DNA of 64,000 nucleotides from Candidatus Bathyarchaeota archaeon RBG_16_48_13 (GCA_001775995.1 MEZH01000004.1:50313-114312), one strand, 5' to 3'. Counted from the first letter of the stretch, positions 17,562-57,042 are shown. The notes: generated from the sequence alone by a model not told the origin. A program made the numbers and translations.

Positions 17562-19076
17562 TCATGGCAAGACTGTTCTGATCGTCGGGATCAAAACATC
17601 TGTTACTAGGGCAGGGTATATGCCAAGAATTAACGCGACTACCATCAGAAGTATCAGGGGCACCATCATGAGAACTGGGGGATCCTTGGCTTCTTCCATG
17701 TGATCGGCGAGAGGTCCAAAGAAAATTCTCCTCACGGTCCAGAGACCGTAACCCGCGGTCAAAACACTGGAGAAAATTGCAGATATGGCCACGATCAGGC
17801 GCAGCACAGATCCAGTTGTCATAGCACTAGCCACAACGCCAGAGAATAGCAGCCACTCTGACTGGAATCCGCTAAGAGGGGGTACACCAGCAATGCCCAA
17901 GAAACCTATTAGAGCGGCTAAGGCAGTCAGAGGCATCTTCTTGGCAAGTCCCCCGAGCTTTCCTATGCTGCGAACTCCATGCGTCCGGTATATTATTATG
18001 CCCGCCACTGAGAAGAGAATACACTTGGACAAGCCATGACTCACATAGTGAAAGATTGAACCTGAAATTCCAAGTGAGGTAAATGAGGCTAAGCCCAAAA
18101 GGAGGTAACCCATCTGACTTATGCTGGAATAAGCCAAGAGACGTTTTATGTCGTCCTGGGCAAGAGCCATCAGACCTCCGTACACCATTGTTACAAGGGC
18201 CCAGATGAATAGGATGTCAGAGAAACTGTTAAACACCCCACCGAAAGGCGTTATCACGAGCCTCACAATTGCGTAGGCCCCCAGACCTATCATAGCAGGG
18301 CTCAACAAGGCACTTATTGGCGTTGGGGCTTCCGCGTGAGCATATGGAAGCCACACGTGGATTCCGAAGACCGCCATCTTGACAAGGAAACCCAGAAGAA
18401 GCGCAGCCGACACCCAGGCTGCCAGTTGGGGATTGGCAGAGGCCAGGATATGCATATCAGCTATCTCGAAGCTTCCCACTACTGGAAAAATCGCCAATAT
18501 GCCAGCCAGTACAGATAGGGCACCTATATGAGTCCACAGGAAGTACATAATACCTATCCGCTCTTTTTGGCCGTAGCCGAAGGTGCTAAGAAGGAGCCAA
18601 GATGGTATCAACATCAACTCATAGAATAGATAGAACTCTACAAGATTGGTGGCAAGGACTGTCCCGACCATGCCTACCGTATACAGAAGATACATGGAGA
18701 AGTAGATTGAGTATGCAGTATTATCACCACCTTGTTCGTTGATCTTGTGCTCAATGTAAGGCATCGAAAAAAGAGTGGTTACAAGACAAAGGAAAACTAT
18801 CGTCAAGGCCAGGGGTAAACTTATCCCATCAAGAAGGAAACCGAAATTGAGCCCCGCGATTGGGGCCCAGAGATATTCCTCGGTCACTCGACCTTGGCTC
18901 AGTACACTCGGGGCAGAAAAAGCCAGTAACGCAGTCGCATAGGCAAGAGGGATGAGAGCTACATAACCCACATTCTTGCCCATCCTTCTTCCAAGCAGAT
19001 ACACGAGTGGTACGAAAACAGCCGGGACCAAGAGAACTTGCAGAAGAGACGAAGGGATGGGATTCAGTGAACTCAT
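17562..19076 (-). CDS. nuoM: Antiporter-like membrane subunit, NuoM type, of the membrane-bound hydrogenase
   Basis: 504 aa, about 14 TM. FYELMLIPSWLLL and WLPYAHAEAPTP motifs. Confidence 0.85.
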   Translation of the reverse strand: MSSLNPIPSSLLQVLLVPAVFVPLVYLLGRRMGKNVGYVALIPLAYATALLAFSAPSVLSQGRVTEEYLWAPIAGLNFGFLLDGISLPLALTIVFLCLVTTLFSMPYIEHKINEQGGDNTAYSIYFSMYLLYTVGMVGTVLATNLVEFYLFYELMLIPSWLLLSTFGYGQKERIGIMYFLWTHIGALSVLAGILAIFPVVGSFEIADMHILASANPQLAAWVSAALLLGFLVKMAVFGIHVWLPYAHAEAPTPISALLSPAMIGLGAYAIVRLVITPFGGVFNSFSDILFIWALVTMVYGGLMALAQDDIKRLLAYSSISQMGYLLLGLASFTSLGISGSIFHYVSHGLSKCILFSVAGIIIYRTHGVRSIGKLGGLAKKMPLTALAALIGFLGIAGVPPLSGFQSEWLLFSGVVASAMTTGSVLRLIVAISAIFSSVLTAGYGLWTVRRIFFGPLADHMEEAKDPPVLMMVPLILLMVVALILGIYPALVTDVLIPTIRTVLP

Positions 19077-19077
19077 C

Positions 19078-21117
19078 TCAGAACCTCCCGAAATTCATTA
19101 ACATTAGGATTATGAAAAGAAGAGCCAGAACGACTGCAACCATGTTGTAGGATAGAACGCCCGTTTGAAGTCTCTTGAACCTGTTGTATAACCCGATCAT
19201 GAGGCCGGGTAAAATAATGTTGAAGGCGCGGTCGATGACTCTCGTCTCAAGAGCGTCGTATGTTTTCCGGCCGAAGGCTATCACATTGTTCACGAACAAT
19301 CTGTAATAGAGACTGTTGATATGCCACCTGTTCCAGAAGAAGCTGGACAGGTTCTTGAGGAGAGGGTTCTTATCTACTATGCCCTGAGAATCTGCTCTCC
19401 GTCTCACATAGAGGAGGTAGGCGGGAATGCCACCTATCATAAGCATTGCCAGAGAGAGTGATAGGGCCAAGTAGAAGGGAGGGATTATTGGCGAAGCTAT
19501 GATTGACCCCGAGGATTCAACCGTAACTAATAATTTACTGAAGATATCTTTCAGATGGTCTTCTAAGAAGGGCCCACTCAGTCCTATCACTATTGTTCCC
19601 AGAGCCAAAGCTCCATACGGAATCCACATGATCTTCGGTGACTCGTGCACATGATGACCTTCCCTCTCCATCTCTTTCAAATGCAAGCTGGGCTCCCCAA
19701 GAAATGTCCTGAAGATCATCCTTAGCGTGTAAAAGAAGGTCATAGCCGATGTAGCCAGGGCCACGGCAAGTAGTCCATATTGACCAGCTTCAATAGCTGA
19801 GACTAATATGGCATCCTTGCTCCAGAAGCCGCTGAGAGGAGGAACGCCAGACAGCGAGAGTGCGGTTATTAGCATGAACCAGAATGTCTTCTGCATTTTT
19901 CCTCTTAATCCACCTGTATCCGTCACATATATGGAGTGGGTTGCATGAATTATTGCGCCCGCAGCCAAGAAGAGTGAGGCTTTGAAAACAGCGTGGCTCA
20001 GCAGGTGAAAAATGCTTGACACATATCCTTCCACGCCTTCAGCCGTCAAACCCGCGATGCCCAGCGCGAGCATCATATAGCCAATTTGGCTTATGGTTGA
20101 GTAAGCGAGGATCTTCTTTAGCTCCAGTGCGACTATGGCCTGAGTGGCTGCCATAATGGCCGTGAAGGCGCCTACCCAAGCTAACACCACGAAGAAGTTC
20201 ATGAACTCTGTGTAGCCTAACCAGTAGGCTGTATGGAATATGGGGAATACCCTGGCTATGAGATAGACTCCTGCGTTCACCATGGTGGCAGCGTGAATAA
20301 GGGCTGAGACAGAGGTCGGACCCGCCATAGCTTCGGGTAACCATTCATGAAATGGAAATTGAGCCGATTTTCCAAAGGGCCCACCAAGGAAGAGTAGGGA
20401 TACCAGGGTTATTAGACCAGGAGTATTACCTAGGGCGCTTATCCATTGAGTCGAGCCTTGAAGCTCCGTGAAGCTGAATGTCTTTGAGTACACATATATA
20501 ATGAAGATGGCTACTAGGAGGGCCGCGTCACCAACACGAGTGATTATGAAGGCCTTCATTCCGCAATGCGATGGGGGGTACGCTGGAGTTGGAGCGGGTC
20601 CTCCAACCCAGTGCTCACGTTCATCGCTGTACCAGAACCCAATAAGTGCATAGCTGCAAAGTCCTACCCCCTCCCAACCTATGAGAAGCTGAATGAAGTT
20701 GTCTGACATCACAAGAAGCAGCATGTTCGCTATGAAGAAGTTCATGAGGAACCAGTACCTGGTTAGACCTGATTCACCTTTCATGTAGCCTATGGAATAC
20801 ACCATAACCGCGAAACTGATTATGGAGACTACATTGGCCATGAATATGCTCAAGGGATCCACCAATAGTCCGAACCTGAGCTCACTCAAACCCAAGGCGG
20901 AGAGGGAAGGAAGCCATTTGGCCTCTTCATGGATTGTGATACCCAACAATAGTTCAGGGATCATAGAAACTGCCATGACAACTGCCGCGAAAGAGAAAGC
21001 CAAGGCAACTCCGTCTCTCAGTTTCGATGAGAACTTGGACGCTACAATGGAGATCAAGGCTCCTGCCAAAGGCAGAAACCAGACGAGCCACGGTGCGTAG
21101 GGAAGCATCAGAGACAC
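19078..21117 (-). CDS. nuoL: Antiporter-like membrane subunit, NuoL type (long C-terminal extension)
   Basis: 679 aa. LLIGWEGVGLCSYALIGFWY and HEWLPEAMAGPTSVSALIHAATMV motifs. Confidence 0.9.
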   Translation of the reverse strand: MSLMLPYAPWLVWFLPLAGALISIVASKFSSKLRDGVALAFSFAAVVMAVSMIPELLLGITIHEEAKWLPSLSALGLSELRFGLLVDPLSIFMANVVSIISFAVMVYSIGYMKGESGLTRYWFLMNFFIANMLLLVMSDNFIQLLIGWEGVGLCSYALIGFWYSDEREHWVGGPAPTPAYPPSHCGMKAFIITRVGDAALLVAIFIIYVYSKTFSFTELQGSTQWISALGNTPGLITLVSLLFLGGPFGKSAQFPFHEWLPEAMAGPTSVSALIHAATMVNAGVYLIARVFPIFHTAYWLGYTEFMNFFVVLAWVGAFTAIMAATQAIVALELKKILAYSTISQIGYMMLALGIAGLTAEGVEGYVSSIFHLLSHAVFKASLFLAAGAIIHATHSIYVTDTGGLRGKMQKTFWFMLITALSLSGVPPLSGFWSKDAILVSAIEAGQYGLLAVALATSAMTFFYTLRMIFRTFLGEPSLHLKEMEREGHHVHESPKIMWIPYGALALGTIVIGLSGPFLEDHLKDIFSKLLVTVESSGSIIASPIIPPFYLALSLSLAMLMIGGIPAYLLYVRRRADSQGIVDKNPLLKNLSSFFWNRWHINSLYYRLFVNNVIAFGRKTYDALETRVIDRAFNIILPGLMIGLYNRFKRLQTGVLSYNMVAVVLALLFIILMLMNFGRF

Positions 21118-21118
21118 C

Positions 21119-22633
21119 TTACAGAGGTATTATTCTTCTTACATACTCTCCAATTTGCAGAAGGGAGCCCGCCGCATTCTGGCTAAATTCGAACAAGGGC
21201 CCAGGCCATAAGCCGAAGATCGTGATGAGAGCGGCCATTGCAATCAATACCATCAACATTGAGGGGGGGACCTCTTTAATGCGCGAGATATCCTTCTCCG
21301 GTTTTGCCAGAAAGATTGTTTGTATCACTCTGAGATAGTATGCCATAGACAATCCGCTATTCAGGATGCCGGCTATTGCAAGCACGGGCATGCCTCCCTC
21401 GAAGGCTGACAAGAACAGAGTGTATTTGCTTATGAAGCCACTAAAGGATGGAACACCCCCCAAAGCTAGCAAAGATATGGATAGGGAAACAGATGTTACC
21501 GGCATTAAGCGACCTACGCCTTTTAGGTTAGTGAGCTCTCTGGATCCGAGCTTATAAATCAGGGCGCCTGCGCTTAAGAAGGCAAGTCCCTTCATGAGAG
21601 AATGATTGAAGACATGCATGAAGAGACCTGTTAGTCCGTCAATATTCGCCTGTGATGACCCGGGTGTGCCAGCAACGGCGAGCCCGATGAGCATGTATCC
21701 GATCTGGGAAATACTGGAGTAGGCCAAAAGACGTTTCAAATCCTTCTGGAGAAGCGCCATGATGTTACCTGTGGTCATGGTGACTATTGCAAGGACAGCT
21801 ATCAAAATATCCCAACGGAACTGAAGACTGAACATAATGATGAAGATTCTACAGAATCCGTATAGCCCGGTTTCGATGAGGACCCCTGACAGGAGAGCGC
21901 TTATTGAGCTGGGAGCCTCCGAGTGAGCGTCCGGCAGCCACGTGTGCAATGGAACTATGGCGGTTTTTATACCAAAACCTACAGTGATCATTGCAAAGAC
22001 TATCATTAGCCAAGGCGTTGGCGCAGCATTGAGCAGGGATTGAGAGAGCGACGCCAAGTTGAGTGTCCCTGTAGCTCCGTAAAGAAGAGAGAGAGCGAAG
22101 AGTATGGTTCCCGCGCCGAAGGAGCTTATGATCAGATATTTGAAGCTTGCTTCCATAGCGGTTTTCTGGGTTTTCCGGAATGCCACCAAAACGTATGATG
22201 TGATACTCATGAGTTCCCAGAAAATGAACAATGTGAAGAAGTCACCTGCCGAGACAACTCCCACCATTCCAGCTATCATTCCGAAGATCAGAACGTAATA
22301 CTGGGGTAGGCCGGTTTCGTTCTCCATGTATCTTACTGAATAGATGACCACGAATAACCCCAACAATAGGTAGATGGAAATCATGAAAATTGAAACCGAA
22401 TCAACTTCTAATAAGGTGCCAAGGGTGGGAGCGATAGTTTTCACGATAATGAAGCCATTGGCTGAGACGAGTGGCAGATCATACACCAAGAAGAAGAGGA
22501 TTGTCGAAACAAAACCAATGACAGAGTAATATTGAACAAGATTCTTGACTCTAATCTTGGAGCTTAACCACCCGACGACTGCTGTCGATATCATAAAGAA
22601 AAACAGAACGTCAAGGGTCGCGGTAAACATCAT
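21119..22633 (-). CDS. nuoN: Antiporter-like membrane subunit, NuoN type
   Basis: 504 aa. FWELMSITSYVLVAF...ASFKYLIISSFGAG and WLPDAHSEAPS motifs. Confidence 0.85.
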   Translation of the reverse strand: MMFTATLDVLFFFMISTAVVGWLSSKIRVKNLVQYYSVIGFVSTILFFLVYDLPLVSANGFIIVKTIAPTLGTLLEVDSVSIFMISIYLLLGLFVVIYSVRYMENETGLPQYYVLIFGMIAGMVGVVSAGDFFTLFIFWELMSITSYVLVAFRKTQKTAMEASFKYLIISSFGAGTILFALSLLYGATGTLNLASLSQSLLNAAPTPWLMIVFAMITVGFGIKTAIVPLHTWLPDAHSEAPSSISALLSGVLIETGLYGFCRIFIIMFSLQFRWDILIAVLAIVTMTTGNIMALLQKDLKRLLAYSSISQIGYMLIGLAVAGTPGSSQANIDGLTGLFMHVFNHSLMKGLAFLSAGALIYKLGSRELTNLKGVGRLMPVTSVSLSISLLALGGVPSFSGFISKYTLFLSAFEGGMPVLAIAGILNSGLSMAYYLRVIQTIFLAKPEKDISRIKEVPPSMLMVLIAMAALITIFGLWPGPLFEFSQNAAGSLLQIGEYVRRIIPL

Positions 22634-22663
22634 TGGTTTCTCCGGTGCGGACGTGCCTTCATA

Positions 22664-23017
22664 TTACCATTTTAACTCTTTCAGTTCGCTAACATCGAGT
22701 GTCTTGTACCGTCGATATGCATAAATCGCGATAGCCAATCCCACTGCGATCACACAGCTGCTAACGCCGATGGAGATTATGACGAAGGATTGAGCTAGGG
22801 GATCAGTGAAACCCTGAACTCGATAGGCCGCAAAGGCTATGAAATTCAGGTCTGCAGCGTTGACGATGATTTCGATGCCAATGATCAATTTAATCAAATT
22901 CTTCTTTGTTACCAGGCAATATAGCCCTATAAAATATAGAGCCAATGAGCCTGCGAGGAAGAATTCTATGGAGAGCGTAGATCTTCCTCCCTCTCTCCTC
23001 TCACCATAGCCAAGCAA
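22664..23017 (-). CDS. nuoK: NuoK-type membrane subunit
   Basis: About 100 aa, 3 TM. LIKLIIGIEIIVNAADLNFIAF motif. Start uncertain (the TTG at 23017 overlaps the upstream gene). Confidence 0.8.
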   Translation of the reverse strand: MLGYGERREGGRSTLSIEFFLAGSLALYFIGLYCLVTKKNLIKLIIGIEIIVNAADLNFIAFAAYRVQGFTDPLAQSFVIISIGVSSCVIAVGLAIAIYAYRRYKTLDVSELKELKW

Positions 23018-23256
23018 CAGGCCGCCGCTCCAAAGAGCACGAGGGCCAGCAGAATCAGATCAAGAGGCCGGAAACTCCAGAGAAAATTTGCTAGCATTTG
23101 ACCCAGGTTGGGCACATCTATCCTTAAGAGTTCACTCGGAGCGCTCGAATATTCAAACAACGGAAACGTGTATCTTGACAACAGGGAGACTATGAAGGCC
23201 CCAAAGAGGACTAGAAATGTCAGTCCTAAGGCCAGAACTCGATCAACTTTTGGCAT
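22966..23256 (-). CDS. nuoJ: NuoJ-type subunit, C-terminal half (separate gene)
   Basis: 96 aa, 2 TM. Its own ATG at 23256 is preceded by GGAGGAGGA (23261-23269). Confidence 0.65.
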   Translation of the reverse strand: MPKVDRVLALGLTFLVLFGAFIVSLLSRYTFPLFEYSSAPSELLRIDVPNLGQMLANFLWSFRPLDLILLALVLFGAAACCLAMVRGEREEDLRSP

Positions 23257-23581
23257 GAATTCCTCCTCCGAGCATTATTGCCGCAATGAAAAGAACTATC
23301 ACGGCACCAGCGTAGACCAAGATTTGGAAGAGTGCCGGATAGGGCGCACTTAGCAACCAAAAGAGGGCCCCGATCGTGATGCTCATTCCGCCAAGAGCTA
23401 CAACTGAATGAAGAAGGTCAGGAAGTTCCACAACCAATATGGCCAGAACTATAGAGGCAATTATCAGAATTAGGCTAAGTAATTCTTCCACCCACATTAA
23501 TTGAAATCTTCCCATCGAAACTTGATAGCCCACTGTTAAATTAGGAATATTAATAAACATTTTCACATACTCTTTGACCAA
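23243..23581 (-). CDS. nuoJ: NuoJ-type subunit, N-terminal half
   Basis: LLHSVVALGGMSITIGALFWLLSAPYPALFQILVYAGAVIVLFIAAIML matches the NuoJ core. The true start is probably the internal Met near 23497. Confidence 0.75.
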   Translation of the reverse strand: MVKEYVKMFINIPNLTVGYQVSMGRFQLMWVEELLSLILIIASIVLAILVVELPDLLHSVVALGGMSITIGALFWLLSAPYPALFQILVYAGAVIVLFIAAIMLGGGIHAKS

Positions 23582-23634
23582 AAAGCTTTAAGCGGCGTCG
23601 ACATCCAAAGCTTGAATTCAAGGGTTCATGGTCA

Positions 23635-23967
23635 ATGCCCGGCGTTCTTTCGTCCCCTCCTTTCATAATACTTTTCTCAGTTTTCGTAGGAGTAGCTATT
23701 TACTGGATTGGCGGTAGGTTGGGGGCCAAAGGGGAGGCTAGTCCAGGAAAAGAGGAGGCTTATGCATGTGGGGAAGATATGCCGGCGGTCAAGACCCAAA
23801 TAAACATACAGTCTTTCTTCATATACGCTTTTTACTTCATGATTTTTGACATACTCGCATTTGTCTTAGTGACATCGTTCGGAACTGCTGGTATTTACGC
23901 AACCCTTTTCACTGGAATAGTCCTCTTGGCAGTAATTGTGCTTCCTAAGCTGGGAACTGGGGACTAA
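23635..23967 (+). CDS. nuoA: NuoA-type membrane subunit
   Basis: 110 aa, 3 TM. EAYACGED and FMIFDILAFVL patterns. Confidence 0.75.
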   Translation: MPGVLSSPPFIILFSVFVGVAIYWIGGRLGAKGEASPGKEEAYACGEDMPAVKTQINIQSFFIYAFYFMIFDILAFVLVTSFGTAGIYATLFTGIVLLAVIVLPKLGTGD

Positions 23968-23968
23968 G

Positions 23969-24388
23969 ATGAACGTAGTCAAGTGGGCCAGATCGAAATC
24001 GCCATGGATAATCCATTTCAACACTGGATCATGTAACGGTTGCGACATCGAAGTAGTTGCGGCCTTAACCCCCAAGTTCGATCTCGAGAGATTCGGCGTT
24101 CTTTTGAAGGGAAGCCCACGACACGCCGACGTCATTGTAGTTACGGGCCCGGTCACTAACCAAGTGAAGGAAAGGCTGAAAAGAGTATACGAACAGATGC
24201 CCAGCCCAAAATTCGTAATGGCCATCGGCACCTGCGCATGCTCAGGCGGAGTCTTCAAAGACTGTTACAACTTATGCCAAGGGGTCGACAAAGTGATCCC
24301 GGTGGATATCTATGTTCCGGGCTGCGCGGCCAGCCCCGAAGCTATAATAGATGGCGCAGCAAAATTGTTGAAGAAGATCAGCGGCTAA
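23969..24388 (+). CDS. nuoB: [NiFe]-hydrogenase small subunit (NuoB/MbhJ/EchC family)
   Basis: GSCNGCDIE, GTCACSGG, and PGCAASP motifs (4-Cys proximal cluster, hydrogenase-type CxxC). ATG 1 nt after the nuoA stop. Confidence 0.85.
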   Translation: MNVVKWARSKSPWIIHFNTGSCNGCDIEVVAALTPKFDLERFGVLLKGSPRHADVIVVTGPVTNQVKERLKRVYEQMPSPKFVMAIGTCACSGGVFKDCYNLCQGVDKVIPVDIYVPGCAASPEAIIDGAAKLLKKISG

Positions 24389-24400
24389 GGAGAAGGAGCA

Positions 24401-24907
24401 ATGGTAGAAACGAAGGAGAGCAAAACGGGACTCTTAGAGAGGTTAAGAAACTCAATTCCTCAAGAATGGATATTGAGTCTCAAAGCTCCTGAGCCACGCA
24501 GGATTTTCCTATCAGTAAAAAGGGAGCATTTCAAAGAAGCTATGACCAAGATGCTCAAAGATGAGGAGATAACACACCTTTCGACGATTACAGGTGTGGA
24601 TCTTGGAGAAGAAATCGAGGTCATTTATCACCTTGATAAGTCTGGGACCATTCTATCAGTCAAGACGACGACCCCAAAGAGCCAACCCACGTTGCCGACT
24701 GTGACGGATTTGATACCAGGAGCGCCACTCTACGAGCGAGAGGTGCATGAGCTCTTAGGGGTTGCATTCGATGGTCACCCAGATCTCTCCCGTCTGGTTC
24801 TCCCAGAAGGCTGGCCTCCTGGACTGTACCCACTAAGGAGGGAGATCAGCATAGAGAACATACGTTCTGCACTTGAAAAGGCAAAGGAGGAAAAAAAAGT
24901 TGGATGA
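24401..24907 (+). CDS. nuoC: NuoC / 30-kDa-family subunit
   Basis: 168 aa. YEREVHELLGVAFDGHPD signature. Confidence 0.85.
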   Translation: MVETKESKTGLLERLRNSIPQEWILSLKAPEPRRIFLSVKREHFKEAMTKMLKDEEITHLSTITGVDLGEEIEVIYHLDKSGTILSVKTTTPKSQPTLPTVTDLIPGAPLYEREVHELLGVAFDGHPDLSRLVLPEGWPPGLYPLRREISIENIRSALEKAKEEKKVG

Positions 24908-26078
24908 AGAAAGAGTCATCATCCCAATAGGCCCTCAACACCCTGCCTTGAAAGAACCCATGAATTTCATGCTAAAGGTCGAAGGCGAGAAAGTCCTGGA
25001 AGCAATTCCCAACCTAGGCTATAACCATAGAGGAATAGAGAAAGCAGCCACTGTAAGAACGTACATTCAGAACCTCTATCTCGCAGAGAGAATATGCGGA
25101 ATTTGCTCGATTGCCCACGTGCAATGCTACGCCCAAGGGGTGGAGAAACTTCTGGAGATGGAGATACCACCTAGAGCTCAATACGTCAGATTGATTCTCT
25201 CAGAGTTGAATCGACTCCACAGTCATCTCTTGTGGGTTGGGGTCGCGGCTCACGAGATTGGTTTTGACACGTTATTCATGTATCTGTGGAGAGACAGAGA
25301 GATAGTGATGGACACACTTGAACTCATAACTGGAAACAGAGTCTCATATGGTTTCACAATGTTGGGTGGAGTTCGAAGAGACATATCGCCCGACATGGCC
25401 GCCAGAGTGAAAAAAGAGATGAAAACGGTACGGGATAGAACTCAATACTATAAGAAGATGAGCTCTAATGAAAGAAGCATCCTGAAGAGAACACAGGGTG
25501 TGGGAATCCTAAAGCCCCAAGACGCCCTAGCCCTATGTGCATGCGGACCCACTCTGAGGGCTAGCAACATCAAATGGGATGTGAGGAGAGAGGACCCATA
25601 CTTAGCATACAACGAGATACCCTTCAATGTTGTGACTTCTGATGGATGCGACGTGCTAAGCAGAATGATCGTCCACTACGATGAGGTGATAGAGGCTACA
25701 AACATAATCGAATATGCCCTTGACCACATGCCAAGCGGCTCCTTCAGGGAAAAAGTCACCAGAAGGATTCCAGCGGGAGAGGTAGTAAGTAGAGTTGAAG
25801 CTCCCAGAGGAGAGGACATACATTACATAAAATCCAATGGAACTGACAAGCCGGAGAGATTCAAGGTTAGGGCTCCGACTCTCGGAAACATACCCGCCGT
25901 CTGCAAAATGCTCTCTGACAGTTACATCGCGGACGTGCCAATAATCCTGGCAGGGATAGATCCCTGTTTCAGTTGCACGGATAGGGTCACTTTCGTAAAG
26001 GGAGAGATGGGTAAGGGCTGGATCTGGACCCAAGAGGAACTCAGGAGGTACGCCAACAGGTGGTACCAGCAGAGATAA
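24873..26078 (+). CDS. Group-4 [NiFe]-hydrogenase large subunit (NuoD/HycE/MbhL family)
   Basis: RICGICSIAH at 25089-25118 and DPCFSCTDR at 25959-25985, followed by a 30-aa C-terminal tail. The start may instead be the TTG at 24900. Confidence 0.9.
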   Translation: MKRQRRKKKLDEERVIIPIGPQHPALKEPMNFMLKVEGEKVLEAIPNLGYNHRGIEKAATVRTYIQNLYLAERICGICSIAHVQCYAQGVEKLLEMEIPPRAQYVRLILSELNRLHSHLLWVGVAAHEIGFDTLFMYLWRDREIVMDTLELITGNRVSYGFTMLGGVRRDISPDMAARVKKEMKTVRDRTQYYKKMSSNERSILKRTQGVGILKPQDALALCACGPTLRASNIKWDVRREDPYLAYNEIPFNVVTSDGCDVLSRMIVHYDEVIEATNIIEYALDHMPSGSFREKVTRRIPAGEVVSRVEAPRGEDIHYIKSNGTDKPERFKVRAPTLGNIPAVCKMLSDSYIADVPIILAGIDPCFSCTDRVTFVKGEMGKGWIWTQEELRRYANRWYQQR

Positions 26079-27022
26079 TAGAATTCTTAAGCGTTCTAAT
26101 ATATCCGGGATTCATCTTCATCTTTACCCTGGCTTTTTTCTATGAGTGGGTAGATAGGAAATTTGTGGCAAGATTGCAGAACAGATACGGTCCCCTTTAC
26201 GCCGGACCGGGTGGTATTCTGCAGCCATTCGCAGATTTCATCAAGCTGTTGGCCAAGGAAGACATTACTCCGCGTGCTGCTGACAAGACCACCTTCCGAG
26301 TCACGCCCATACTCATGCTTGCCTTGGCTCTTTCGACACTATTCTTCATCCCTACAGCCTACACAACAGCTGTGTCGTGGTTCGAAGGGGACTTGATCTT
26401 CGTTACTTTCTTGGTCAGTATATTGGTATTGATAACCTTGATAGCAGCCTGGAGTTCTACCAGCACGTTCAGCACAGTGGGGGGTATCAGGGTAGTGCTC
26501 CAGATGCTGGGGTTTGAAATTCCTATGACAATAGTCATGGTCGGTCCGGCAATAGTGTCCAAGACGCTATCCATTACCAATATTGCTCTGTGGCAATACA
26601 CCACTGGTCATTACTTCGCCATCTACCAGCCCATAGGGCTTATAGTACTCATCATTTGCCTTTTGGCTGAAATCAAGAAAGCTCCCTTCGATATTCCCGA
26701 AGCTGAAAGTGAGTTAGCTGCCGGATGGATCACGGAGTTCTCAGGAAGGAAGTTGGCTCTGATAAGACTGACAACAGACGTCGAGCTGATACTGGCCGGG
26801 GCCTTGGTGACAGCCCTGTTCCTAGGTGGCCCAACCGGACCTTTCGGAATACCCTCCGTCATATTCTTCCTGATAAAGACCACGGGGGTCATACTCGTCA
26901 TCTCAAACCTGAGAGCGCTATTTGCCCGGTTCAGGATTGATCAGATGCTTGGAGGATTCTGGAAGTATCTGGTACCCCTAGCTCTTCTTCAGATAATATT
27001 AGTCACATTAGGGGTTGGTTAG
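26060..27022 (+). CDS. nuoH: NuoH-type membrane subunit
   Basis: 320 aa, 8 TM. RKFVARLQNRYGP, PFADFIKLL, and PFDIPEAESEL motifs. Confidence 0.9.
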   Translation: MVPAEIIEFLSVLIYPGFIFIFTLAFFYEWVDRKFVARLQNRYGPLYAGPGGILQPFADFIKLLAKEDITPRAADKTTFRVTPILMLALALSTLFFIPTAYTTAVSWFEGDLIFVTFLVSILVLITLIAAWSSTSTFSTVGGIRVVLQMLGFEIPMTIVMVGPAIVSKTLSITNIALWQYTTGHYFAIYQPIGLIVLIICLLAEIKKAPFDIPEAESELAAGWITEFSGRKLALIRLTTDVELILAGALVTALFLGGPTGPFGIPSVIFFLIKTTGVILVISNLRALFARFRIDQMLGGFWKYLVPLALLQIILVTLGVG

Positions 27023-27024
27023 AG

Positions 27025-27369
27025 ATGGCGATGGAACATGAATTGCTCCGAAATCTAAGGAAGAAGGTTGCCACTGAGAAATACCCTTTTATTAAGAAGA
27101 AGCCCCCGGAAGGACTGCGCGGTAAACTGATAATAGACATGGCGAAGTGCATAGGATGCGGTCTCTGCGTCTTTGATTGCCCTGCCGGGGCCATAGAAAT
27201 GATTGGCAAAGGCACTGCAGCAGATCTAAAGGTATACTTGGACAGGTGCCACTTCTGTGGCCAATGTGCCGAGAGTTGCCCCTCAAAATGTATAGTGTAC
27301 AGCACTGAGTTTGAGTTGGCGAATTTCGATAAGAAAAATCTGACTATAGAATTTAAGAGAAAACTGTAG
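27025..27369 (+). CDS. nuoI: NuoI-type 2x[4Fe-4S] ferredoxin subunit
   Basis: CIGCGLCVFDCP and CHFCGQCAESCP motifs. 114 aa. Confidence 0.85.
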   Translation: MAMEHELLRNLRKKVATEKYPFIKKKPPEGLRGKLIIDMAKCIGCGLCVFDCPAGAIEMIGKGTAADLKVYLDRCHFCGQCAESCPSKCIVYSTEFELANFDKKNLTIEFKRKL

Positions 27370-27397
27370 TATAACTGATTCTGGCAGCACGAGCTAT

Positions 27398-27931
27398 TTG
27401 CGATTCTTGTCAGACTCAGGTTTCGGTGGCATGACCGTCATGAAATGGGAAAAAGATTTGACATCATGGCTCAAAGATTCAAGGAGAGTATTGGTCATGG
27501 GAATTGGAAATCCTCTCGGAGGGGACGACAACCTTGGAAACTCAATGATTGAAGCAATCAAAAGGTTACCGCCAATAAAGGGAGTAACCTTACTAAGGTG
27601 TGATACGATACCCGAAAACTTCACTGGAAGGATAAGGAAACTGAAGCCAGATCACGTGATTATCATAGATGCATCAGAGATAAATGGAAGATGGGGGGAA
27701 GCGGCACTCATACCGCCCTCAGAGATCAAGGGGATACCAATATCCAATCATTCACTGCCCATAAATCTCCTCTCGGAATATGTCCAAGAAACCATAGGTA
27801 CGAAAGTTATGATGCTTGCTGTTCAACCCAAAGAGATGTCATACAGCGACAGACTTTCTAAAGAGATAGAGAGCTCCATAACGGTTATCTCAAAGAAATT
27901 ATTTGAAATCCTATCGGCCCGGCGTTCTTGA
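27398..27931 (+). CDS. Hydrogenase maturation endopeptidase (HycI/HyaD family)
   Basis: VLVMGIGNPLGGDDNLG, TIPENF, and IIIDA motifs. Directly downstream of the hydrogenase operon. The start may be the ATG at 27431. Confidence 0.8.
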   Translation: MRFLSDSGFGGMTVMKWEKDLTSWLKDSRRVLVMGIGNPLGGDDNLGNSMIEAIKRLPPIKGVTLLRCDTIPENFTGRIRKLKPDHVIIIDASEINGRWGEAALIPPSEIKGIPISNHSLPINLLSEYVQETIGTKVMMLAVQPKEMSYSDRLSKEIESSITVISKKLFEILSARRS

Positions 27932-27964: not shown

Positions 27965-29065
27965 ATGAATGACCTTGGAAAACAAGCCTCTAAACACCTA
28001 GGGAGTACTGCTATGAGAATAGAAAATCTCAGGAAAGCATTCTCATCAGATTTAGATCACTTCATAGTGACAAATCCGAAAAATCTATTCTATTTGACAG
28101 GATTTCAGGGGAGTGGCGTCTTGATGATAACGCCGGACAGTGCAGTGACCCTCTATGTATATTCGATCGAATTTGAGCATGCAAAGAGCAAAGCAAGAGG
28201 ATGCGAAATAGAACTCTTGGAGAATAAGATGAAGATTGAAGAGAAGGTTATGAATGATCTGAAGGTTCGGGGAGCCAAACGGGTAGGCATCGATGACCTT
28301 CCAATCTCCCAGTATCTGTTATTCAAGAGAAGAAGCAGAGGAATGGAAATCCTGCTCAAAGTCGATCTAATATGGAAGCTACGGAAGAGAAAGGATTCTG
28401 TAGAACTCAAGAACATGAAAAAAGCTGCTGAAATAGCGACCCATGGCTTCGAAGCTGCTCTGGAAGCAATAAGACCGGGAGCAACTGAAAAAGAAGTCGC
28501 TGCGGAAATCGAATATAGGATGAGGAGGCACGGATCGGAGGGGTTGGCTTTCGACTCAATAGTTGCATCAGGCTTCAACTCGATTCTTCCTCATGTTGGA
28601 CCGACAGAAAGAAAAATCAGGGATGACGATTTCGTTATAGTTGACATAGGGTCAATTTACGAAGGCTACTGCACAGACATAACTAGAACATACGTGGCAG
28701 GAAACCCATCGGTTCGACAAAGACGGATGTACGATGCCGTTTTGAGAGCACACGATAGGGCCATCGAATGTATCCAAGAGGGTGTAATGGCGAAGGTGGT
28801 TGATCACAGAGCTAGACAGATCCTGTCAAGAAGAGGCTATGGAGAATTCTTTGTGCATTCCTTAGGTCATGGCGTGGGTTTGGAAGTCCACGAGCCTCCA
28901 AGGCTGAGTCCTAATAGCAGTGAGGAACTTCAGAGCGGATATGTGGTCACAGTCGAGCCCGGGGTATACATTCCAGGCTATGGAGGCGTAAGGATAGAAG
29001 ATACAGTTGCTGTGGTCAGAGGTGGGTCTGAAAGGTTATCCGAGGCCCCGTATGGCCTGAGCTAG
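27965..29065 (+). CDS. M24-family Xaa-Pro aminopeptidase/dipeptidase
   Basis: Pita-bread fold motifs DIGSIYEGYCTDITRT, HSLGHGVGLEVHE, and GGVRIED. Confidence 0.85.
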   Translation: MNDLGKQASKHLGSTAMRIENLRKAFSSDLDHFIVTNPKNLFYLTGFQGSGVLMITPDSAVTLYVYSIEFEHAKSKARGCEIELLENKMKIEEKVMNDLKVRGAKRVGIDDLPISQYLLFKRRSRGMEILLKVDLIWKLRKRKDSVELKNMKKAAEIATHGFEAALEAIRPGATEKEVAAEIEYRMRRHGSEGLAFDSIVASGFNSILPHVGPTERKIRDDDFVIVDIGSIYEGYCTDITRTYVAGNPSVRQRRMYDAVLRAHDRAIECIQEGVMAKVVDHRARQILSRRGYGEFFVHSLGHGVGLEVHEPPRLSPNSSEELQSGYVVTVEPGVYIPGYGGVRIEDTVAVVRGGSERLSEAPYGLS

Positions 29066-42200: not shown

Positions 42201-43253
42201 ATGCCAAGGAAAGAGGCCTTAATGTACGAGGTGTTGGCCAAGGATATAATTCACTGCAAACTATGTCCAAAGAGTTGTTACATCGCACCCAATAAAAGAG
42301 GTTTCTGCAAGGTCAGAGAGAATGATAGAGGAAGACTATTCACATTAGCATACGGTGAAACGACTGCTCAAGCCATAGATCCGATTGAGAAGAAACCACT
42401 CTTCAACTTCTGGCCAGGTAGTCTATCATTCTCAATAAGCACCATTTCATGCACCTTCTCCTGCGTCTGGTGTCAGAACTGGAATATTTCACAGGTTGCT
42501 CCGGGAGAGATTCGAACAGAAGAGATAAGTCCGGAAGATGCTGTGAAACTGGCGAAGAAATACGGATGTCGATCAATCTCATACACATACAACGAACCAT
42601 TCGTCTGGTATGAATTCATCATGGACACAGCGAAGATCGCTCAGAAAGAGAACATATTAAATGTGATGGTAACAAATGGATACGTAACTCTAGAGGCACT
42701 AGACCAGATTGCTCCATTCATAGACGCGGCTAACGTTGATATCAAAGGATTCACAGAAGGATTCTATCGCAAGTATTGCGCTGCTGAGCTCAAACCCGTT
42801 TTGAATGCGACAACGGCGATGAAAGACAAAGGGATCCACGTTGAGGTCACAAATCTCATAATCCCGGATCTGAACGATAACTCGGAAGAAATCAGGGAAA
42901 TGTGCAAGTGGCATGTTGAAAATCTCGGAGAAGAGACACCGCTCCACCTTAGCAGATTTTATCCCCATTACAGACTTGCTTCCACTCCTGAGACCCCGGT
43001 GAGTACTCTGGAAAAGGCTCAAAAGATAGCTTTGGAAATGGGATTGCATTATGTGTACGTCGGAAATGTGCCTGGACATGGCGGAGAAAACACGTATTGC
43101 CCGAAATGCAAGGCTCTTCTCATCGAAAGGAACGGCTTTGACATTACAGAGTGGCGGCTTGCGCCAGGGAAGAGCTGCCCAGAATGCGGTTTCAAGCCAA
43201 ACATCATAGGGGAATACGAGGCACGATCACGAGTACCGCATTCGACGATTTAG
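42201..43253 (+). CDS. amrS: AmmeMemoRadiSam-system radical SAM enzyme (AmrS)
   Basis: CKLCPKSC...GFCKVR N-terminal cluster, DPIEKKPLFNFWPGS, and CTFSCVWCQNW radical-SAM motif. Confidence 0.85.
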   Translation: MPRKEALMYEVLAKDIIHCKLCPKSCYIAPNKRGFCKVRENDRGRLFTLAYGETTAQAIDPIEKKPLFNFWPGSLSFSISTISCTFSCVWCQNWNISQVAPGEIRTEEISPEDAVKLAKKYGCRSISYTYNEPFVWYEFIMDTAKIAQKENILNVMVTNGYVTLEALDQIAPFIDAANVDIKGFTEGFYRKYCAAELKPVLNATTAMKDKGIHVEVTNLIIPDLNDNSEEIREMCKWHVENLGEETPLHLSRFYPHYRLASTPETPVSTLEKAQKIALEMGLHYVYVGNVPGHGGENTYCPKCKALLIERNGFDITEWRLAPGKSCPECGFKPNIIGEYEARSRVPHSTI

Positions 43254-43257
43254 GGAT

Positions 43258-43683
43258 GTGAAAATTTTGAGCAGAGAAGTCCAAACTAGGTTCAGCATAA
43301 CCATATCTCCACCCATCTTGGAGGAGTTCGACCGAGTTGTCCATGATGTAGGATACAGGAGCAGGTCAAAGGCTGTGCGTGACGCCCTTCTCAATTTCAT
43401 TGCCCACCAGAAGATGCTCAGAGGAAAAGGAACCAGGGCAGGAAGCATAACGATAGTGTATGATTACAGGGACCCAACAAACGAATTGACTTCTCTCAAA
43501 CATAGATATGCTGGCATAATTGAAGCGACCCTTGATGTGAATCTTGGAGAACACCATAATCTGGCGATTATGGCTGTAAATGGTGATCTTGGCGATATAA
43601 GTAAGCTCACCAAGGCACTTCAGACTCAAAAAAACATAAAACACACCGAAACCGTGATACTGACATCATCCAAAATCGACTAG
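43258..43683 (+). CDS. NikR-fold (RHH + ACT-like) transcriptional regulator lacking canonical Ni ligands
   Basis: RFSITISPPILEEFD...YRSRSKAVRDAL ribbon-helix-helix. The C-terminal domain aligns to NikR but reads ATLDVNLGEHHNLAIMAV. Confidence 0.7.
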   Translation: MKILSREVQTRFSITISPPILEEFDRVVHDVGYRSRSKAVRDALLNFIAHQKMLRGKGTRAGSITIVYDYRDPTNELTSLKHRYAGIIEATLDVNLGEHHNLAIMAVNGDLGDISKLTKALQTQKNIKHTETVILTSSKID

Positions 43684-45849: not shown

Positions 45850-48261
45850 TTAGGATTCGTCTTCTTTCTGAATGTCATCTGAGGTTGGATCTTTTCGTTT
45901 GCCACGAATTACCGCATATGCTACTGCAACTAAGGATATTCCGCTGATTGCGTATGCAACCAATTGCATTAGGCCACCTTGCTTGCTTACTAGTATTAGC
46001 AGCGGAGCAATAAGCAGTGAGATCAGGTTGACTACTTTAATCATCGGATTCAAAGCCGGACCTGCCGTGTCTTTAAGCGGGTCACCAACGGTGTCACCAA
46101 TAATGCTTGCTTTATGGCGAAGCGAGCCTTTGCCAAGATTCTCATCCGGTGCACTTCTTTCGCTTTCAATCTCTTTCTTAGCATTGTCCCAGGCGCCGCC
46201 CGCGTTTGCCATGAAGACAGCTAATAATTGACCAGTTATTATCACACCCGCTAAGAATCCGCCTAGAGCAAGTTCGCCTATTAGAAAACCTATGATTATC
46301 GGCATCAAAACAGCCAACAACGCCACGCTAATCAGTTCGCTCTGGGCAGCATTCGTGCATATGCGCACGACCTTTGCATAGTCTGGTTTTGTTGTGCCTT
46401 CCATCACACCTGGAATTCTGAATTGTTTGCGCACTTCCTCTACGATTAGTGAAGCTGCTCTTTGAACGGCGCGCAATAGAATTGAACTGAACAAGAACGG
46501 CATGGCTCCGCCAATCAGCATCCCGATGAAGACGAGGGGCTGTGCGATGTCCAGTACTATGTTCAGGCCGAGTGCTTCAACAAATGAGCCAAACAAGCTG
46601 ACGGCGGCAATGACGGCAGAGGCAATAGCAATGCCTTTCGTAATTGCCTTGGTCGTATTGCCCGTCGCATCCAAATCGGCAAGAGTAGCTTGGCCTTCCG
46701 TGCTCTGGAAGTCTTCCTTGCACATCTCTGCGATACCGCCCGCGTTGTCCGAGATCGGTCCGAATGCATCCATAGCCAAGTTGTTGCCAGTATGCGAAAG
46801 CATTCCTATTCCGGTAAGAGCTACAGAGTAGAATATGAACAGCACTTGGTTTGTTGGCGGGATTTTAAAACTACTGATGATCAATCCGAGCACTATAACG
46901 GCCATTGCTCCGAAAACACCAATTTCTATCTTCTTGCTTCGCCTAGCCAAGAGAATTCCCACTATGACGGCTGCTATAACTGCTCCCGCTATTATCATGG
47001 GTGCTAGTGCCACTGGGGTCGTGAAAGAGTATATGGAAACTGCTCCCAGAATTGATAATGCGATTATCAGAATAGCCCATACACTGCTTTCGTAGCCTAT
47101 GGTAATTCCAGATAATATTACGATGGCTGCGCCAAATTTAGTGGACCTAACTATGTCTTTAACTGAACCTGTATCTCGTTGAGTGAATGCCCCAGTGTAT
47201 TTGTTAAATGCTATTGCCAGCAAGATTCCTGTTGCTGTTGCTGCAAAAAGGCGTAAATCTTGGACATAGAAGTAGGCGATGAAGAAAAAGGCAGTTGTGG
47301 AAATAACCGAAGACAGGTCGTAGGAAAGATCCATCGCCCGAAAAGCATCACCTTTCGTCGGCCACCAATTAACCGCGTAGGTCCCAATGATGGAGCTAAA
47401 TACACCTATAGCGCGCACCAGCAGGGGGAATATGATATACTTGAGACTGTGGGTTGGGTCGATCGCTGATACAGCTAACCCCAAGATCAACGCAGAAACC
47501 ATCGTGACTTCATAAGACTCAAAAACATCCTCAGCCATCCCGCTGAAGTCACCCACGTTGTCACCGACTAGGTCGGCAATGGCAGCCGCATTGCGCGGAT
47601 CATCCTCAGGAATGTCATGTTCAACCTTACCAACTAGGTCAGCTCCTACATCAGCCGCCTTAGTGTAAATGCCACCTCCGACTCTCATGAACATGGCTAG
47701 CAAAGTGCCTCCAAAGCCGAAGCCCAATAGCACATCTGGGGCGTGAACACCATACAGAATGAATATGACTGTGCCTCCAAGCAACCCGAGCCCATCTGCT
47801 AACATTCCAGCAATTGTACCAGCTCTATAAGCGACCCGCAATGCTCCTTGAAAAGATCCGGCTCGAGCTTGTTGGGCGACTCTGACGTTGGCTCGCGTCC
47901 CAATTACTCTAAGTCCAATTTGCCCAATCGCCAGCGAGCAGGCTGCTCCAAACAGTAGGGCAATTCCGCGTCCAATGTAGATCTGCCAAGGATACTGCGA
48001 AAAATATGCTGATACCGCTAAGGCTAACGCGAGAAGAAAGGCAATTGGTATAACTACTTCCATCTGACGATTCAGATAGGCAATTGCGCCCTCACGGATA
48101 GAGTTCGAGAGGTCCTGCATCTTCTTGGTGCCTGGGTCTTCTTTCAGCACCCTTCGAGCCAGCCAAAAGGCGTATAAAAGCGCTGCGACACCCGTGCTGA
48201 TCACAAGTAGCAGAGCTATTTGCTCAAACTGGGATAGGCCGCTCGTCAGAATTGAACTCAT
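45850..48261 (-). CDS. hppA: Membrane-bound proton/sodium-translocating pyrophosphatase
   Basis: 803 aa, about 16 TM. GGIYTKAADVGADLVGKVE, DNVGDxxGM, and GDTVGDPLKDT motifs. Confidence 0.95.
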   Translation of the reverse strand: MSSILTSGLSQFEQIALLLVISTGVAALLYAFWLARRVLKEDPGTKKMQDLSNSIREGAIAYLNRQMEVVIPIAFLLALALAVSAYFSQYPWQIYIGRGIALLFGAACSLAIGQIGLRVIGTRANVRVAQQARAGSFQGALRVAYRAGTIAGMLADGLGLLGGTVIFILYGVHAPDVLLGFGFGGTLLAMFMRVGGGIYTKAADVGADLVGKVEHDIPEDDPRNAAAIADLVGDNVGDFSGMAEDVFESYEVTMVSALILGLAVSAIDPTHSLKYIIFPLLVRAIGVFSSIIGTYAVNWWPTKGDAFRAMDLSYDLSSVISTTAFFFIAYFYVQDLRLFAATATGILLAIAFNKYTGAFTQRDTGSVKDIVRSTKFGAAIVILSGITIGYESSVWAILIIALSILGAVSIYSFTTPVALAPMIIAGAVIAAVIVGILLARRSKKIEIGVFGAMAVIVLGLIISSFKIPPTNQVLFIFYSVALTGIGMLSHTGNNLAMDAFGPISDNAGGIAEMCKEDFQSTEGQATLADLDATGNTTKAITKGIAIASAVIAAVSLFGSFVEALGLNIVLDIAQPLVFIGMLIGGAMPFLFSSILLRAVQRAASLIVEEVRKQFRIPGVMEGTTKPDYAKVVRICTNAAQSELISVALLAVLMPIIIGFLIGELALGGFLAGVIITGQLLAVFMANAGGAWDNAKKEIESERSAPDENLGKGSLRHKASIIGDTVGDPLKDTAGPALNPMIKVVNLISLLIAPLLILVSKQGGLMQLVAYAISGISLVAVAYAVIRGKRKDPTSDDIQKEDES

Positions 48262-49562: not shown

Positions 49563-50294
49563 CTACTTTGTGAGTATGATTCTGGCATCCACCACTTGAA
49601 GACCATCAGAATAGAGTATAGTGGGATTAAGATCCAACTCACTTATTTCTTGGTGTTCCGTGACAAGCCTTGATACCTTCAATAAGAGATCTGAAAGCGC
49701 CTTCAAATCCACTGCAGGATAGTTCCTGTAGCCCTTCAATATGGGGAAGGCCTTAATCTCGGTAATCATTTCCATGGCATCGTTTTCGGTTATTGGAGCG
49801 ACCCTGAAAGAGACATCCTTTAATAGCTCAACGAAGATTCCTCCCAAACCAAACATGAGTGCGGGACCAAATTGAGGGTCTTTTATGGAGCCAACTATTA
49901 CCTCAGTGGATGAAGGCGCCATAGCCGAAACCAGTATCCCGTCAATCCTAGCATCAGGTTTGTTCTTTTTTACGTTTGCCATGATCAATTCAAAGGCGGC
50001 TTTCACCTCATCAATAGTCTTGGGCCCAACGACTACACCTCCAACGTCCGATTTGTGAATTACATCTTGTGAGACTATCTTTAGGACCACCGGGAAACCG
50101 AGTTCTTTGGCAGCTGAGGTGGCCTCGCTCTCGCTCTTTGCCACTCTGAAGCCGGGTACAGGGATTCCGTACTCGATGCATATCATCTTGGCCTCAGGTT
50201 CCAGGAGGTATGTTCGGTTCTCATTCAACGCATTTCGTATTAGGTTATTTGTTATCGAATCCATTTCTTGAGACCTCATTTCTTCTTTAGCCAA
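49563..50294 (-). CDS. acdB: Acetyl-CoA synthetase (ADP-forming) beta subunit
   Basis: ATP-grasp segment (EAKMICIEYGIPVP...PVVLKIVS...HKSDVGGV). Overlaps the end of acdA. Confidence 0.85.
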   Translation of the reverse strand: MAKEEMRSQEMDSITNNLIRNALNENRTYLLEPEAKMICIEYGIPVPGFRVAKSESEATSAAKELGFPVVLKIVSQDVIHKSDVGGVVVGPKTIDEVKAAFELIMANVKKNKPDARIDGILVSAMAPSSTEVIVGSIKDPQFGPALMFGLGGIFVELLKDVSFRVAPITENDAMEMITEIKAFPILKGYRNYPAVDLKALSDLLLKVSRLVTEHQEISELDLNPTILYSDGLQVVDARIILTK

Positions 50295-57027: not shown

Positions 57028-57042
57028 ACCGGGGGACTGAAG

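Follow-up and report, generated by a model that had tools for sequence, protein, structure and literature searches.

The DNA analysed here is a stretch of 64,000 nucleotides from Candidatus Bathyarchaeota archaeon RBG_16_48_13 (GCA_001775995.1 MEZH01000004.1:50313-114312), referred to below as the window, and the subject of this account is a gene cluster at positions 17562-27931 whose products resemble the subunits of respiratory complex I and which we read as probably encoding a membrane-bound [NiFe]-hydrogenase. The cluster consists of thirteen close-set, intact open reading frames (ORFs) in two divergent blocks and holds no further coding content. Families were assigned from Pfam and NCBIfam profile matches judged against the cut-offs of those models, and the subunits are named here by the letters of their complex I counterparts. 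An earlier note on this DNA had described two divergent operons, A-B-C-D-H-I on the plus strand and J1-J2-K-N-L-M on the minus strand; the ORFs are intact where it placed them and the families are confirmed, as is its remark that the order J-K-N-L-M is non-canonical, the canonical order being seen instead in the related loci L002-L005. The features are as follows.

17562-19076, minus strand: M, NuoM/NdhD-type antiporter-like subunit, 504 amino acids (aa); PF00361; TIGR01972, 310 bits (cut-off 264).
19078-21117, minus strand: L, NuoL/NdhF-type antiporter-like subunit with the full C-terminal extension, ORF of 679 aa; TIGR01974, 503 bits (cut-off 407.5).
21119-22633, minus strand: N-like, MbhH/MrpD/NuoN-type antiporter-like subunit, 504 aa, which adjoins K rather than coming last; PF00361; PRK08376, 356 bits.
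22664-23017, minus strand: K, NuoK; PF00420, 86 bits; NF004320, 67 bits (cut-off 57).
22966-23256, minus strand: J2, C-terminal half of a split NuoJ, 96 aa, two predicted transmembrane helices; assigned with hhalign.
23243-23581, minus strand: J1, N-terminal half of the split NuoJ, ORF of 112 aa; PF00499 positions 2-59 of 146, 48 bits; PF13244 (MbhD), 28 bits.
23498-23634, no strand: intergenic region between the divergent operons, A+T-rich with TATA-like stretches.
23635-23967, plus strand: A, NuoA, 110 aa; PF00507, 27.7 bits (cut-off 23.3), a weak match.
23969-24388 (ORF from 23936), plus strand: B, NuoB/MbhJ-type hydrogenase small subunit, 139 aa; PF01058, 115 bits.
24401-24907, plus strand: C, NuoC/MbhK-type subunit, 168 aa; PF00329, 107 bits.
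24900-26078 (ORF from 24873), plus strand: D, [NiFe]-hydrogenase large subunit, 392 aa; PF00346 (Complex1_49kDa) and PF00374 (NiFeSe_Hases).
26060-27022, plus strand: H, NuoH-type membrane subunit, 320 aa; PF00146, 297 bits.
27025-27369, plus strand: I, 2x[4Fe-4S] ferredoxin-like subunit of the NuoI/HycF/MbhN type; Fer4 families.
27431-27931 (ORF from 27398), plus strand: HycI-type hydrogenase maturation endopeptidase, 166 aa; PF01750; TIGR00072, 86 bits (cut-off 47).

Start codons were refined with the gene calls of a public record of the same DNA (locus L023, GCA_035256105.1) and with homologues in other contigs. The L023 calls give likely starts at 23969 for B, 24900 for D, 21108 for L and 27431 for the protease. 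J1 likely begins at 23497, which leaves a protein of 84 aa; its homologues in loci L001 and L024 begin at the equivalent of Met29, and an 84-aa J1 gene is called in the contig of a 76%-identical relative. This start widens the gap between the divergent operons from 53 bp to about 137 bp, and the interval 23498-23634 would act as a promoter region shared by both operons. A scan of the cluster for bacterial-type promoters and terminators returned nothing above chance, as expected for an archaeon.

The character of the complex is set by its large subunit. The L1 motif RICGICSIAH (25089-25118) and the L2 motif DPCFSCTDR (25959-25985) translate from D and are followed by a C-terminal tail of 30 aa (VTFVKGEMGKGWIWTQEELRRYANRWYQQR, 25986-26075), all of them exactly where the earlier note had reported them in what it called a NuoD homologue. 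The best PDB matches of D are HycE (293 bits), MbhL (279 bits) and Nqo4 (239 bits). L1 aligns with RVCGICGFAH of HycE and RMCGICSFSH of MbhL, and L2 with DPCYSCTDR and DPCLSCTDR of the same proteins, both Cys pairs matching the Ni-Fe ligands column for column, as the earlier note had expected of a proper alignment; the tail is alignable with that of HycE, and the proton-relay residue Glu21 of MbhL is kept. Set against Nqo4, the alignment shows that its quinone ligands have been replaced, His38 by Lys and Tyr87 by the Gly of CGIC, and that Cys stands at the positions of Asp86 and His89. Conservation in orthologues, likewise proposed as a check, proved complete: the four Cys are kept in 120/120 of the closest homologues (59-76% identity), every one of which also has a tail, of 24-59 aa. 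In six close homologues K or H replaces the R of L1, with both Cys present, and when 1.84 billion cluster representatives were scanned with HMMER, L1 and L2 were likewise present in most of the nearest clusters. Given the ligand alignment and this conservation, the motifs are not due to chance.

The small subunit points the same way. B has its best PDB match in MbhJ (176 bits, compared with at most 135 bits for complex I and NDH-1 homologues), and its motif GSCNGCDIE, with CNGC at 24032-24043, is identical in MbhJ; the complex I homologues NdhK and PSST align there with a three-residue gap and CC, which bears out the earlier observation that CNGC takes the place of the CC of complex I. Its Cys ligands, in the arrangement C-x2-C...C...C (Cys33, Cys36, Cys100 and Cys130 in the numbering of the ORF), are predicted to hold one [4Fe-4S] cluster. 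C ends at its own stop codon in a frame different from that of D and the two are not fused. I contains two CxxCxxCxxxCP motifs (CIGCGLCVFDCP and CHFCGQCAESCP), and its NCBIfam matches are to NuoI-like models and to iron-sulfur subunit models of formate hydrogenlyase (FHL), all of them below their cut-offs.

Downstream of I, the earlier note had seen a HycI/HyaD-type endopeptidase, and this too stands: besides its above-threshold match to TIGR00072, the protein has its best PDB matches in HycI of T. kodakarensis (83.6 bits) and of E. coli (52 bits), and three metal-binding positions align with HycI, namely GDD, the Asp of IIDA and the His of SNHSLP. It carries the quoted GIGNPLGGDDNLG and PEN motifs, and scores 104 bits on the HycI model TIGR00142, below the cut-off of 119. 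HycI is known to cleave off the tail of HycE. In one relative, locus L027 (GCA_012974725.1, JABAHQ010009513.1, 1-12232), a 62%-identical homologue of D is situated between genes for HypF, HypC and a cobW/HypB-like protein, and a HycI gene follows. Directly after the HycI-type gene of the window comes a gene for an M24 Xaa-Pro-type peptidase (27965-29065, plus strand), and the same adjacency and downstream synteny occur in the contig of a 76%-identical homologue; an M24 gene is also found near the L027 cluster, and the association is possibly coincidental.

The membrane arm is, by contrast with the redox module, for the most part that of complex I, and profile and PDB matches substantiate the near-complete arm that had been proposed (NuoA, a split J, K, H and three antiporter-like subunits, including a 679-aa NuoL). 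L, M, K and B pass the NCBIfam Nuo thresholds, whereas D, H, C and I do not reach the corresponding cut-offs. H matches NdhA (154 bits), Nqo8 (143), NuoH (139), MbhM (104) and HycD (66) in the PDB. The match of L to TIGR01974 spans positions 5-629 of the 630 in the model, and its best PDB match, NdhF (318 bits), covers 8-670 of L and 8-651 of 656 in NdhF, a span that takes in the C-terminal part from which the lateral helix of complex I is made; the motifs WEGVG, GKSAQFP, LIHAATMV, HLLSHAVFKA and FWSKD are all present. M, with its best matches in MbhH (206 bits), NdhD (183) and NuoM (176), carries the Glu of transmembrane helix (TM) 5, the Lys of TM7 and a NuoM-like Glu in TM12 (GFQSEW). The N-like subunit scores 276 bits on the NuoN model TIGR01770, below its cut-off of 333, and has its best PDB matches in MbhH (258 bits), MbsH (206) and NuoN (176). 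Both it and M score 240-290 bits against the 'hydrogenase 4 subunit B/D' models. NuoA is present at the same position in loci L001, L023, L024 and L026.

J2 is the least obvious member of the arm. It has no Pfam or NCBIfam family match, and its sole PDB match is MbhE at E = 0.73. Its residues 55-84, which make up the last TM helix, fall on positions 116-145 of the unsplit 154-aa J of canonical-order relatives (hhalign, 81%, E = 1.3e-5), and the same small profile-profile comparison with bacterial NuoJ gave no match; J2 is retained in L001, L024 and L026. Pfam and NCBIfam scans found no NuoEFG or FpoF/O either in the cluster or in the rest of the window. Judged on these matches, the complex appears to be a mosaic in which a hydrogenase-like redox module is joined to a complex-I-like arm, without the Mrp Na+ module, NuoEFG or FpoF.

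An architecture of this kind was described in Bathyarchaeia by Loh, Hervé & Brune (2021), who named it Hfo, assigned it to HydDB subgroup 4g and saw in it a link between hydrogenases and complex I (PMC7886697). Hfo-like clusters were reported in Ca. Methanomethylicus and Pyrodictium delaneyi as well (PMC7886697). In the cultivated Bathyarchaeum tardum the 'NuoD' carries L1 and L2, according to Khomyakova et al. (2023, PMC10477458), and group-4 hydrogenases with NuoL/M/N-like subunits are reported from Korarchaeia (PMC10667645) and, with an HL helix, from Asgard archaea (Valentin-Alvarado et al. 2024, PMC11291895). All four studies read the architecture as that of a hydrogenase, and the suggestion in the earlier note of an intermediate between hydrogenases and complex I is therefore right as an idea but had already been published there.

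The position of D was assessed with a neighbour-joining tree of 162 near-full-length D-type sequences (MAFFT alignment, 100 bootstraps), HydDB references and published Hfo sequences not being among them. A clade of 33 NuoD/FpoD/Nqo4 members is split, with a bootstrap of 91/100, from the hydrogenase side that holds the D of the window; among its members are Nqo4, the bacterial NuoD genes, two NuoD that pass their cut-off and one bona fide FpoD (723 bits against a cut-off of 600). The large subunit is thus not nested in NuoD/FpoD, in keeping with the earlier note. The clade to which the D of the window belongs has a bootstrap of 77, and its nearest sister, with a support of 43/100, is formed by the canonical-order Bathyarchaeia loci (L002-L005 and P0121), which we take as the Hfo type.

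On this evidence we consider it probable, at roughly 85%, that the cluster encodes an Hfo-like [NiFe]-hydrogenase of group 4, membrane-bound and energy-converting, with a complete complex I as its scaffold; the Ni-Fe motifs, the tree, the small subunit and the adjoining HycI-type protease all support the group-4 energy-converting assignment that had been made before. In such an enzyme reduced ferredoxin, as the presumed partner, would pass electrons to the two [4Fe-4S] clusters of I, and from there they would move through the single cluster of B to a Ni-Fe centre held by the four Cys of D. This centre would occupy the quinone site of complex I, where protons would be reduced to H2 or, in reverse, H2 oxidised, and the redox reaction would be coupled to ion translocation through the 'E-channel' region of H, A, J and K and the chain of N-like, M and L subunits, the long C-terminal extension of L serving to clamp the three antiporter-like subunits. 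D would be made as a precursor into which Hyp proteins encoded elsewhere insert the metal, after which the HycI-type protease would presumably cut off the 30-residue tail behind the Arg of DPCFSCTDR. What the sequence shows is the gene content, the motifs with their conservation and the affinities of each subunit; that ferredoxin is the partner, which way the reaction runs, which ion is coupled and in what ratio it is pumped, how the subunits are arranged and that the tail is cut off are inferences on our part.

Several observations weigh against this assignment. Textbook potentials suggest, by our reckoning, that the energy available between ferredoxin and H2 pays for only about 1-2 H+ per 2 e-, a poor fit to an arm with four channels, and it would follow from so small a span either that the enzyme works mainly in reverse or that not all of its channels work. 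The central Lys of TM8 in MbhH, MbsH, MbsH' and MrpD is replaced by Glu in the N-like subunit (LIETG) and by Gly in M (MIGLG), and the same position is Pro, Lys, Ser or Gly in relatives (L024, L026 and L003-L005), with the TM5 Glu and TM7 Lys retained; some channels may accordingly be altered in these proteins, and the losses in two of the three antiporter-like subunits could mean fewer working channels and a stoichiometry matched to the ferredoxin/H2 span. D also remains close to the complex I family, missing the NuoD cut-off by little (343 bits against 360) and scoring 333 bits on FpoD. Signature regular expressions and Pfam/NCBIfam scans of some 50 ORFs found no hypA-F in the window, and about 2.6 kb of further sequence past it, in a fragmented public assembly, likewise yielded no hyp genes; one candidate for HypE, an AIR-synthase-family protein at 55003-56031 on the minus strand, was rejected on its score (121.6 bits against a cut-off of 251.6) and its C-terminus, which ends ...VALSRQF without the PRIC Cys. 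To our knowledge no enzyme of this complex-I-shaped type has been purified or assayed. Subgroup 4g, in which the literature puts both Hfo and the korarchaeal enzymes, has been called heterogeneous and polyphyletic, and its members are without biochemical characterisation to date (PMC7886697).

The question of direction gives rise to the most serious of the rival readings, in which the same enzyme takes up H2, an ATPase- or H+-pyrophosphatase-generated potential driving the reduction of ferredoxin by H2 for the Wood-Ljungdahl pathway and the large arm acting as a 'gearbox' of high ratio when electrons flow in reverse. This is the model of Loh et al. for Hfo in acetogenic Bathy-6 (PMC7886697), and by our reasoning an arm with many channels would make thermodynamic sense if several ions entered per H2 oxidised; however, genes for the Wood-Ljungdahl pathway, Hox or another hydrogenase were not found in the window, H2 evolution is established for Mbh and FHL, the characterised relatives whose large subunits come nearest, and sequence alone cannot decide the direction. 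We regard uptake as a real possibility that falls short of an even chance. That the electrons come instead from a separately encoded NADH or F420 module (NuoEFG/HoxEFU-like or FpoF-like), which would make the complex an NADH:H+ or F420H2:H+ oxidoreductase, seems improbable to us. A separately clustered NuoEFG-like set has been suggested to dock in Bathyarchaeum tardum (PMC10477458), and in every metagenome-assembled genome that encodes it Hfo is accompanied by a Hox hydrogenase with HoxEFU (PMC7886697), yet neither the cluster nor the rest of the window has such genes, the formation of H2 from NADH is endergonic and on established thermodynamics leaves no room for outward ion pumping, and the studied eleven-subunit Fpo-like complexes use ferredoxin (cited in PMC7886697).

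The outward shape of the cluster also invites the reading that it encodes a true Fpo/Nuo-like ferredoxin:quinone or ferredoxin:methanophenazine oxidoreductase, with Cys motifs that are relics or that bind a ligand other than Ni-Fe. The subunit set is exactly that of the eleven-subunit complex I; H, L, M, K and B lie at or near the Nuo thresholds; D scores 343 bits on NuoD and 333 bits on FpoD; and a protein identical to D was formerly annotated as NADH dehydrogenase. Such an enzyme would, however, hardly have kept four Cys and a tail in all 120 homologues, replaced both quinone ligands, acquired the CxxC hydrogenase motif in its small subunit, placed a HycI gene next to the operon of D and, in the case of the 62%-identical homologue, Hyp genes beside it, or put its D outside the NuoD/FpoD clade, and we hold this reading to be very improbable. 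Its variant with the Cys motifs as relics in a true Fpo/Nuo complex was rejected, since the motifs are conserved, the quinone ligands are replaced, and both the protease and the tree speak against it.

Among known systems the hydrogenase proposed here is most like Hfo, with which it shares a host among the Bathyarchaeia, the same eleven subunit types (A, B, C, D, H, I, J, K, L, M and N), L1 and L2 in D and the lack of NuoEFG/FpoFO and of a Mrp-type Na+ module. The gene order of Hfo is Fpo-like and the supplement of its description lists hfoCD (PMC7886697). It differs from the window in that C and D are fused, whereas here they are separate and in different frames, and in that its genes form one co-directional operon in Fpo order, whereas the window has two divergent operons, one of them J1-J2-K-N-L-M. 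The Hfo-type loci L002-L005 have a single 154-aa J where that of the window is split, their D ends at DPCFSCTDR where that of the window continues into a 30-aa tail and is accompanied by an adjoining HycI gene, and D identity between the two is 51-54%.

Mbh of P. furiosus (group 4d, PDB 6CFW), in which ferredoxin-dependent H2 evolution is coupled to an ion gradient, has, among solved structures, the small subunit nearest to B and, after HycE, the large subunit nearest to D; MbhH is the best match of both the N-like subunit and M, and J1/J2 parallel MbhD/MbhE. Mbh has, however, a single antiporter-like subunit and a Mrp-type Na+ module (MbhA-C and F) and is without a lateral-helix NuoL, whereas the window encodes three antiporter-like subunits, a full NuoL and NuoA, has no MbhA-C/F homologues in the cluster, and possesses an H that resembles NuoH/NdhA (154 bits) more than MbhM (104 bits). 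FHL of E. coli (Hyc, group 4a, PDB 7Z0S) contributes in HycE the best-matching solved large subunit, with its alignable tail. In HycE, on the other hand, C and D are fused, HycD stands furthest from H among its homologues (66 bits), and the cluster is without formate dehydrogenase or any FHL-specific subunit. The related E. coli Hyf has three antiporter-like subunits. With the eleven-subunit forms of complex I, Fpo-like complexes and NDH-1 the cluster shares its entire subunit inventory, a full-length NuoL/NdhF and an H nearest to NdhA and Nqo8, but differs from complex I in the Ni-Fe ligands at the quinone-ligand positions, in CxxC for CC at the equivalent of N2 and in the presence of a maturation protease. 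The complexes of Asgard archaea and Korarchaeia belong to other phyla and are likened to that of the window by their published description only.

Four layouts were found among the relatives of the cluster. The closest contigs have the order of the window, which continues through genes for HycI, M24 peptidase, UPP synthase, DUF373, arcadin and NifU. In a second layout, at about 63% identity (L024, 2595-12477, and L026, 2807-12559), J-K-N and A-B-C-D-H-I form a divergent core and L-M lies on the opposite strand, upstream of N and convergent with N-K-J; judged from this arrangement the distal L-M pair seems to behave like a movable gene module. The third, that of L027 (62% identity), has B-C-D-I-HycI alone, without A, H or antiporter-like genes nearby and with HypF divergently upstream, and may represent a soluble form of the enzyme or one whose membrane arm is encoded elsewhere. 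The fourth, seen in loci L002-L005 of Bathyarchaeia (D identity 51-54%), reads B-CD-H-I-J-K-L-M-N, with C and D fused in the same frame, the single J of 154 aa and a D that ends exactly at DPCFSCTDR with no tail.

The cluster of the window, whose source is a metagenome-assembled genome of Bathyarchaeia, appears, from these comparisons, to belong to an abundant lineage related to the published Hfo. That this lineage is in addition a distinct, undescribed branch of complex-I-like hydrogenases, defined by separate C and D, a split J, a cleavable tail with HycI, the J-K-N and A-B-C-D-H-I core and the movable L-M pair, is a proposal that we think unlikely. Close matches are labelled Hodarchaeota in one case and, as a member of the cluster of a close match, Hermodarchaeia in another, labels that may reflect binning or gene transfer.

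The names given to these proteins have varied. The earlier note expected annotation pipelines to label the cluster NADH dehydrogenase, and this holds for one of two records of a protein identical to D, OGD46686.1 (Ca. Bathyarchaeota archaeon RBG_16_48_13, 'NADH dehydrogenase'), but not for the newer HJX24338.1 (Ca. Bathyarchaeia archaeon), which is named 'nickel-dependent hydrogenase large subunit'. JGI names of close homologues of D range over NuoD, 'membrane-bound hydrogenase subunit alpha' and 'Ni,Fe-hydrogenase III large subunit'. Since such enzymes are easily mislabelled, metabolic reconstructions can miss hydrogen metabolism. One study of Bathyarchaeota reported hardly any ferredoxin-recycling hydrogenases.

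The neighbours of the cluster are ordinary archaeal housekeeping genes, among them SMC/ScpAB, TFB, RFC, Orc1/Cdc6 and a CCA-adding enzyme. The gene for the Orc1/Cdc6 replication initiator is at 53786-54967 on the minus strand, and a replication origin may be near. A gene for a NikR-type nickel-responsive regulator (RHH and NikR_C; 43258-43683, plus strand) comes directly after a radical-SAM gene (42201-43253, plus strand), some 15 kb from the cluster, and is consistent with nickel homeostasis in the organism. The window also encodes a membrane H+-pyrophosphatase and an alpha/beta ADP-forming acetyl-CoA synthetase (45850-48261 and 49563-51697, both on the minus strand); the Hfo model uses H+-pyrophosphatase and ADP-forming acetyl-CoA synthetase for membrane energisation and substrate-level ATP synthesis (PMC7886697). 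At 56284-58341 (plus strand) a gene for a CCG-domain protein (HdrD/GlpC/TfrB-like) adjoins one for a LUD/LutB-like Fe-S protein, the pair possibly forming a lactate-type or heterodisulfide-type oxidoreductase.

The locus adds a well-preserved example of a tail-bearing, HycI-linked sub-lineage and leaves the current picture unchanged. Were the lineage to be a distinct branch with fewer working channels, it would offer a natural experiment on the H+/e- ratio of complex I and on the assembly of its arm module by module. Of living systems, such enzymes form the closest link from ancient hydrogenases to respiratory complex I, and for Bathyarchaeia, which are among the most abundant archaea of sediments, they are probably a main route by which low-potential electrons are disposed of or obtained.

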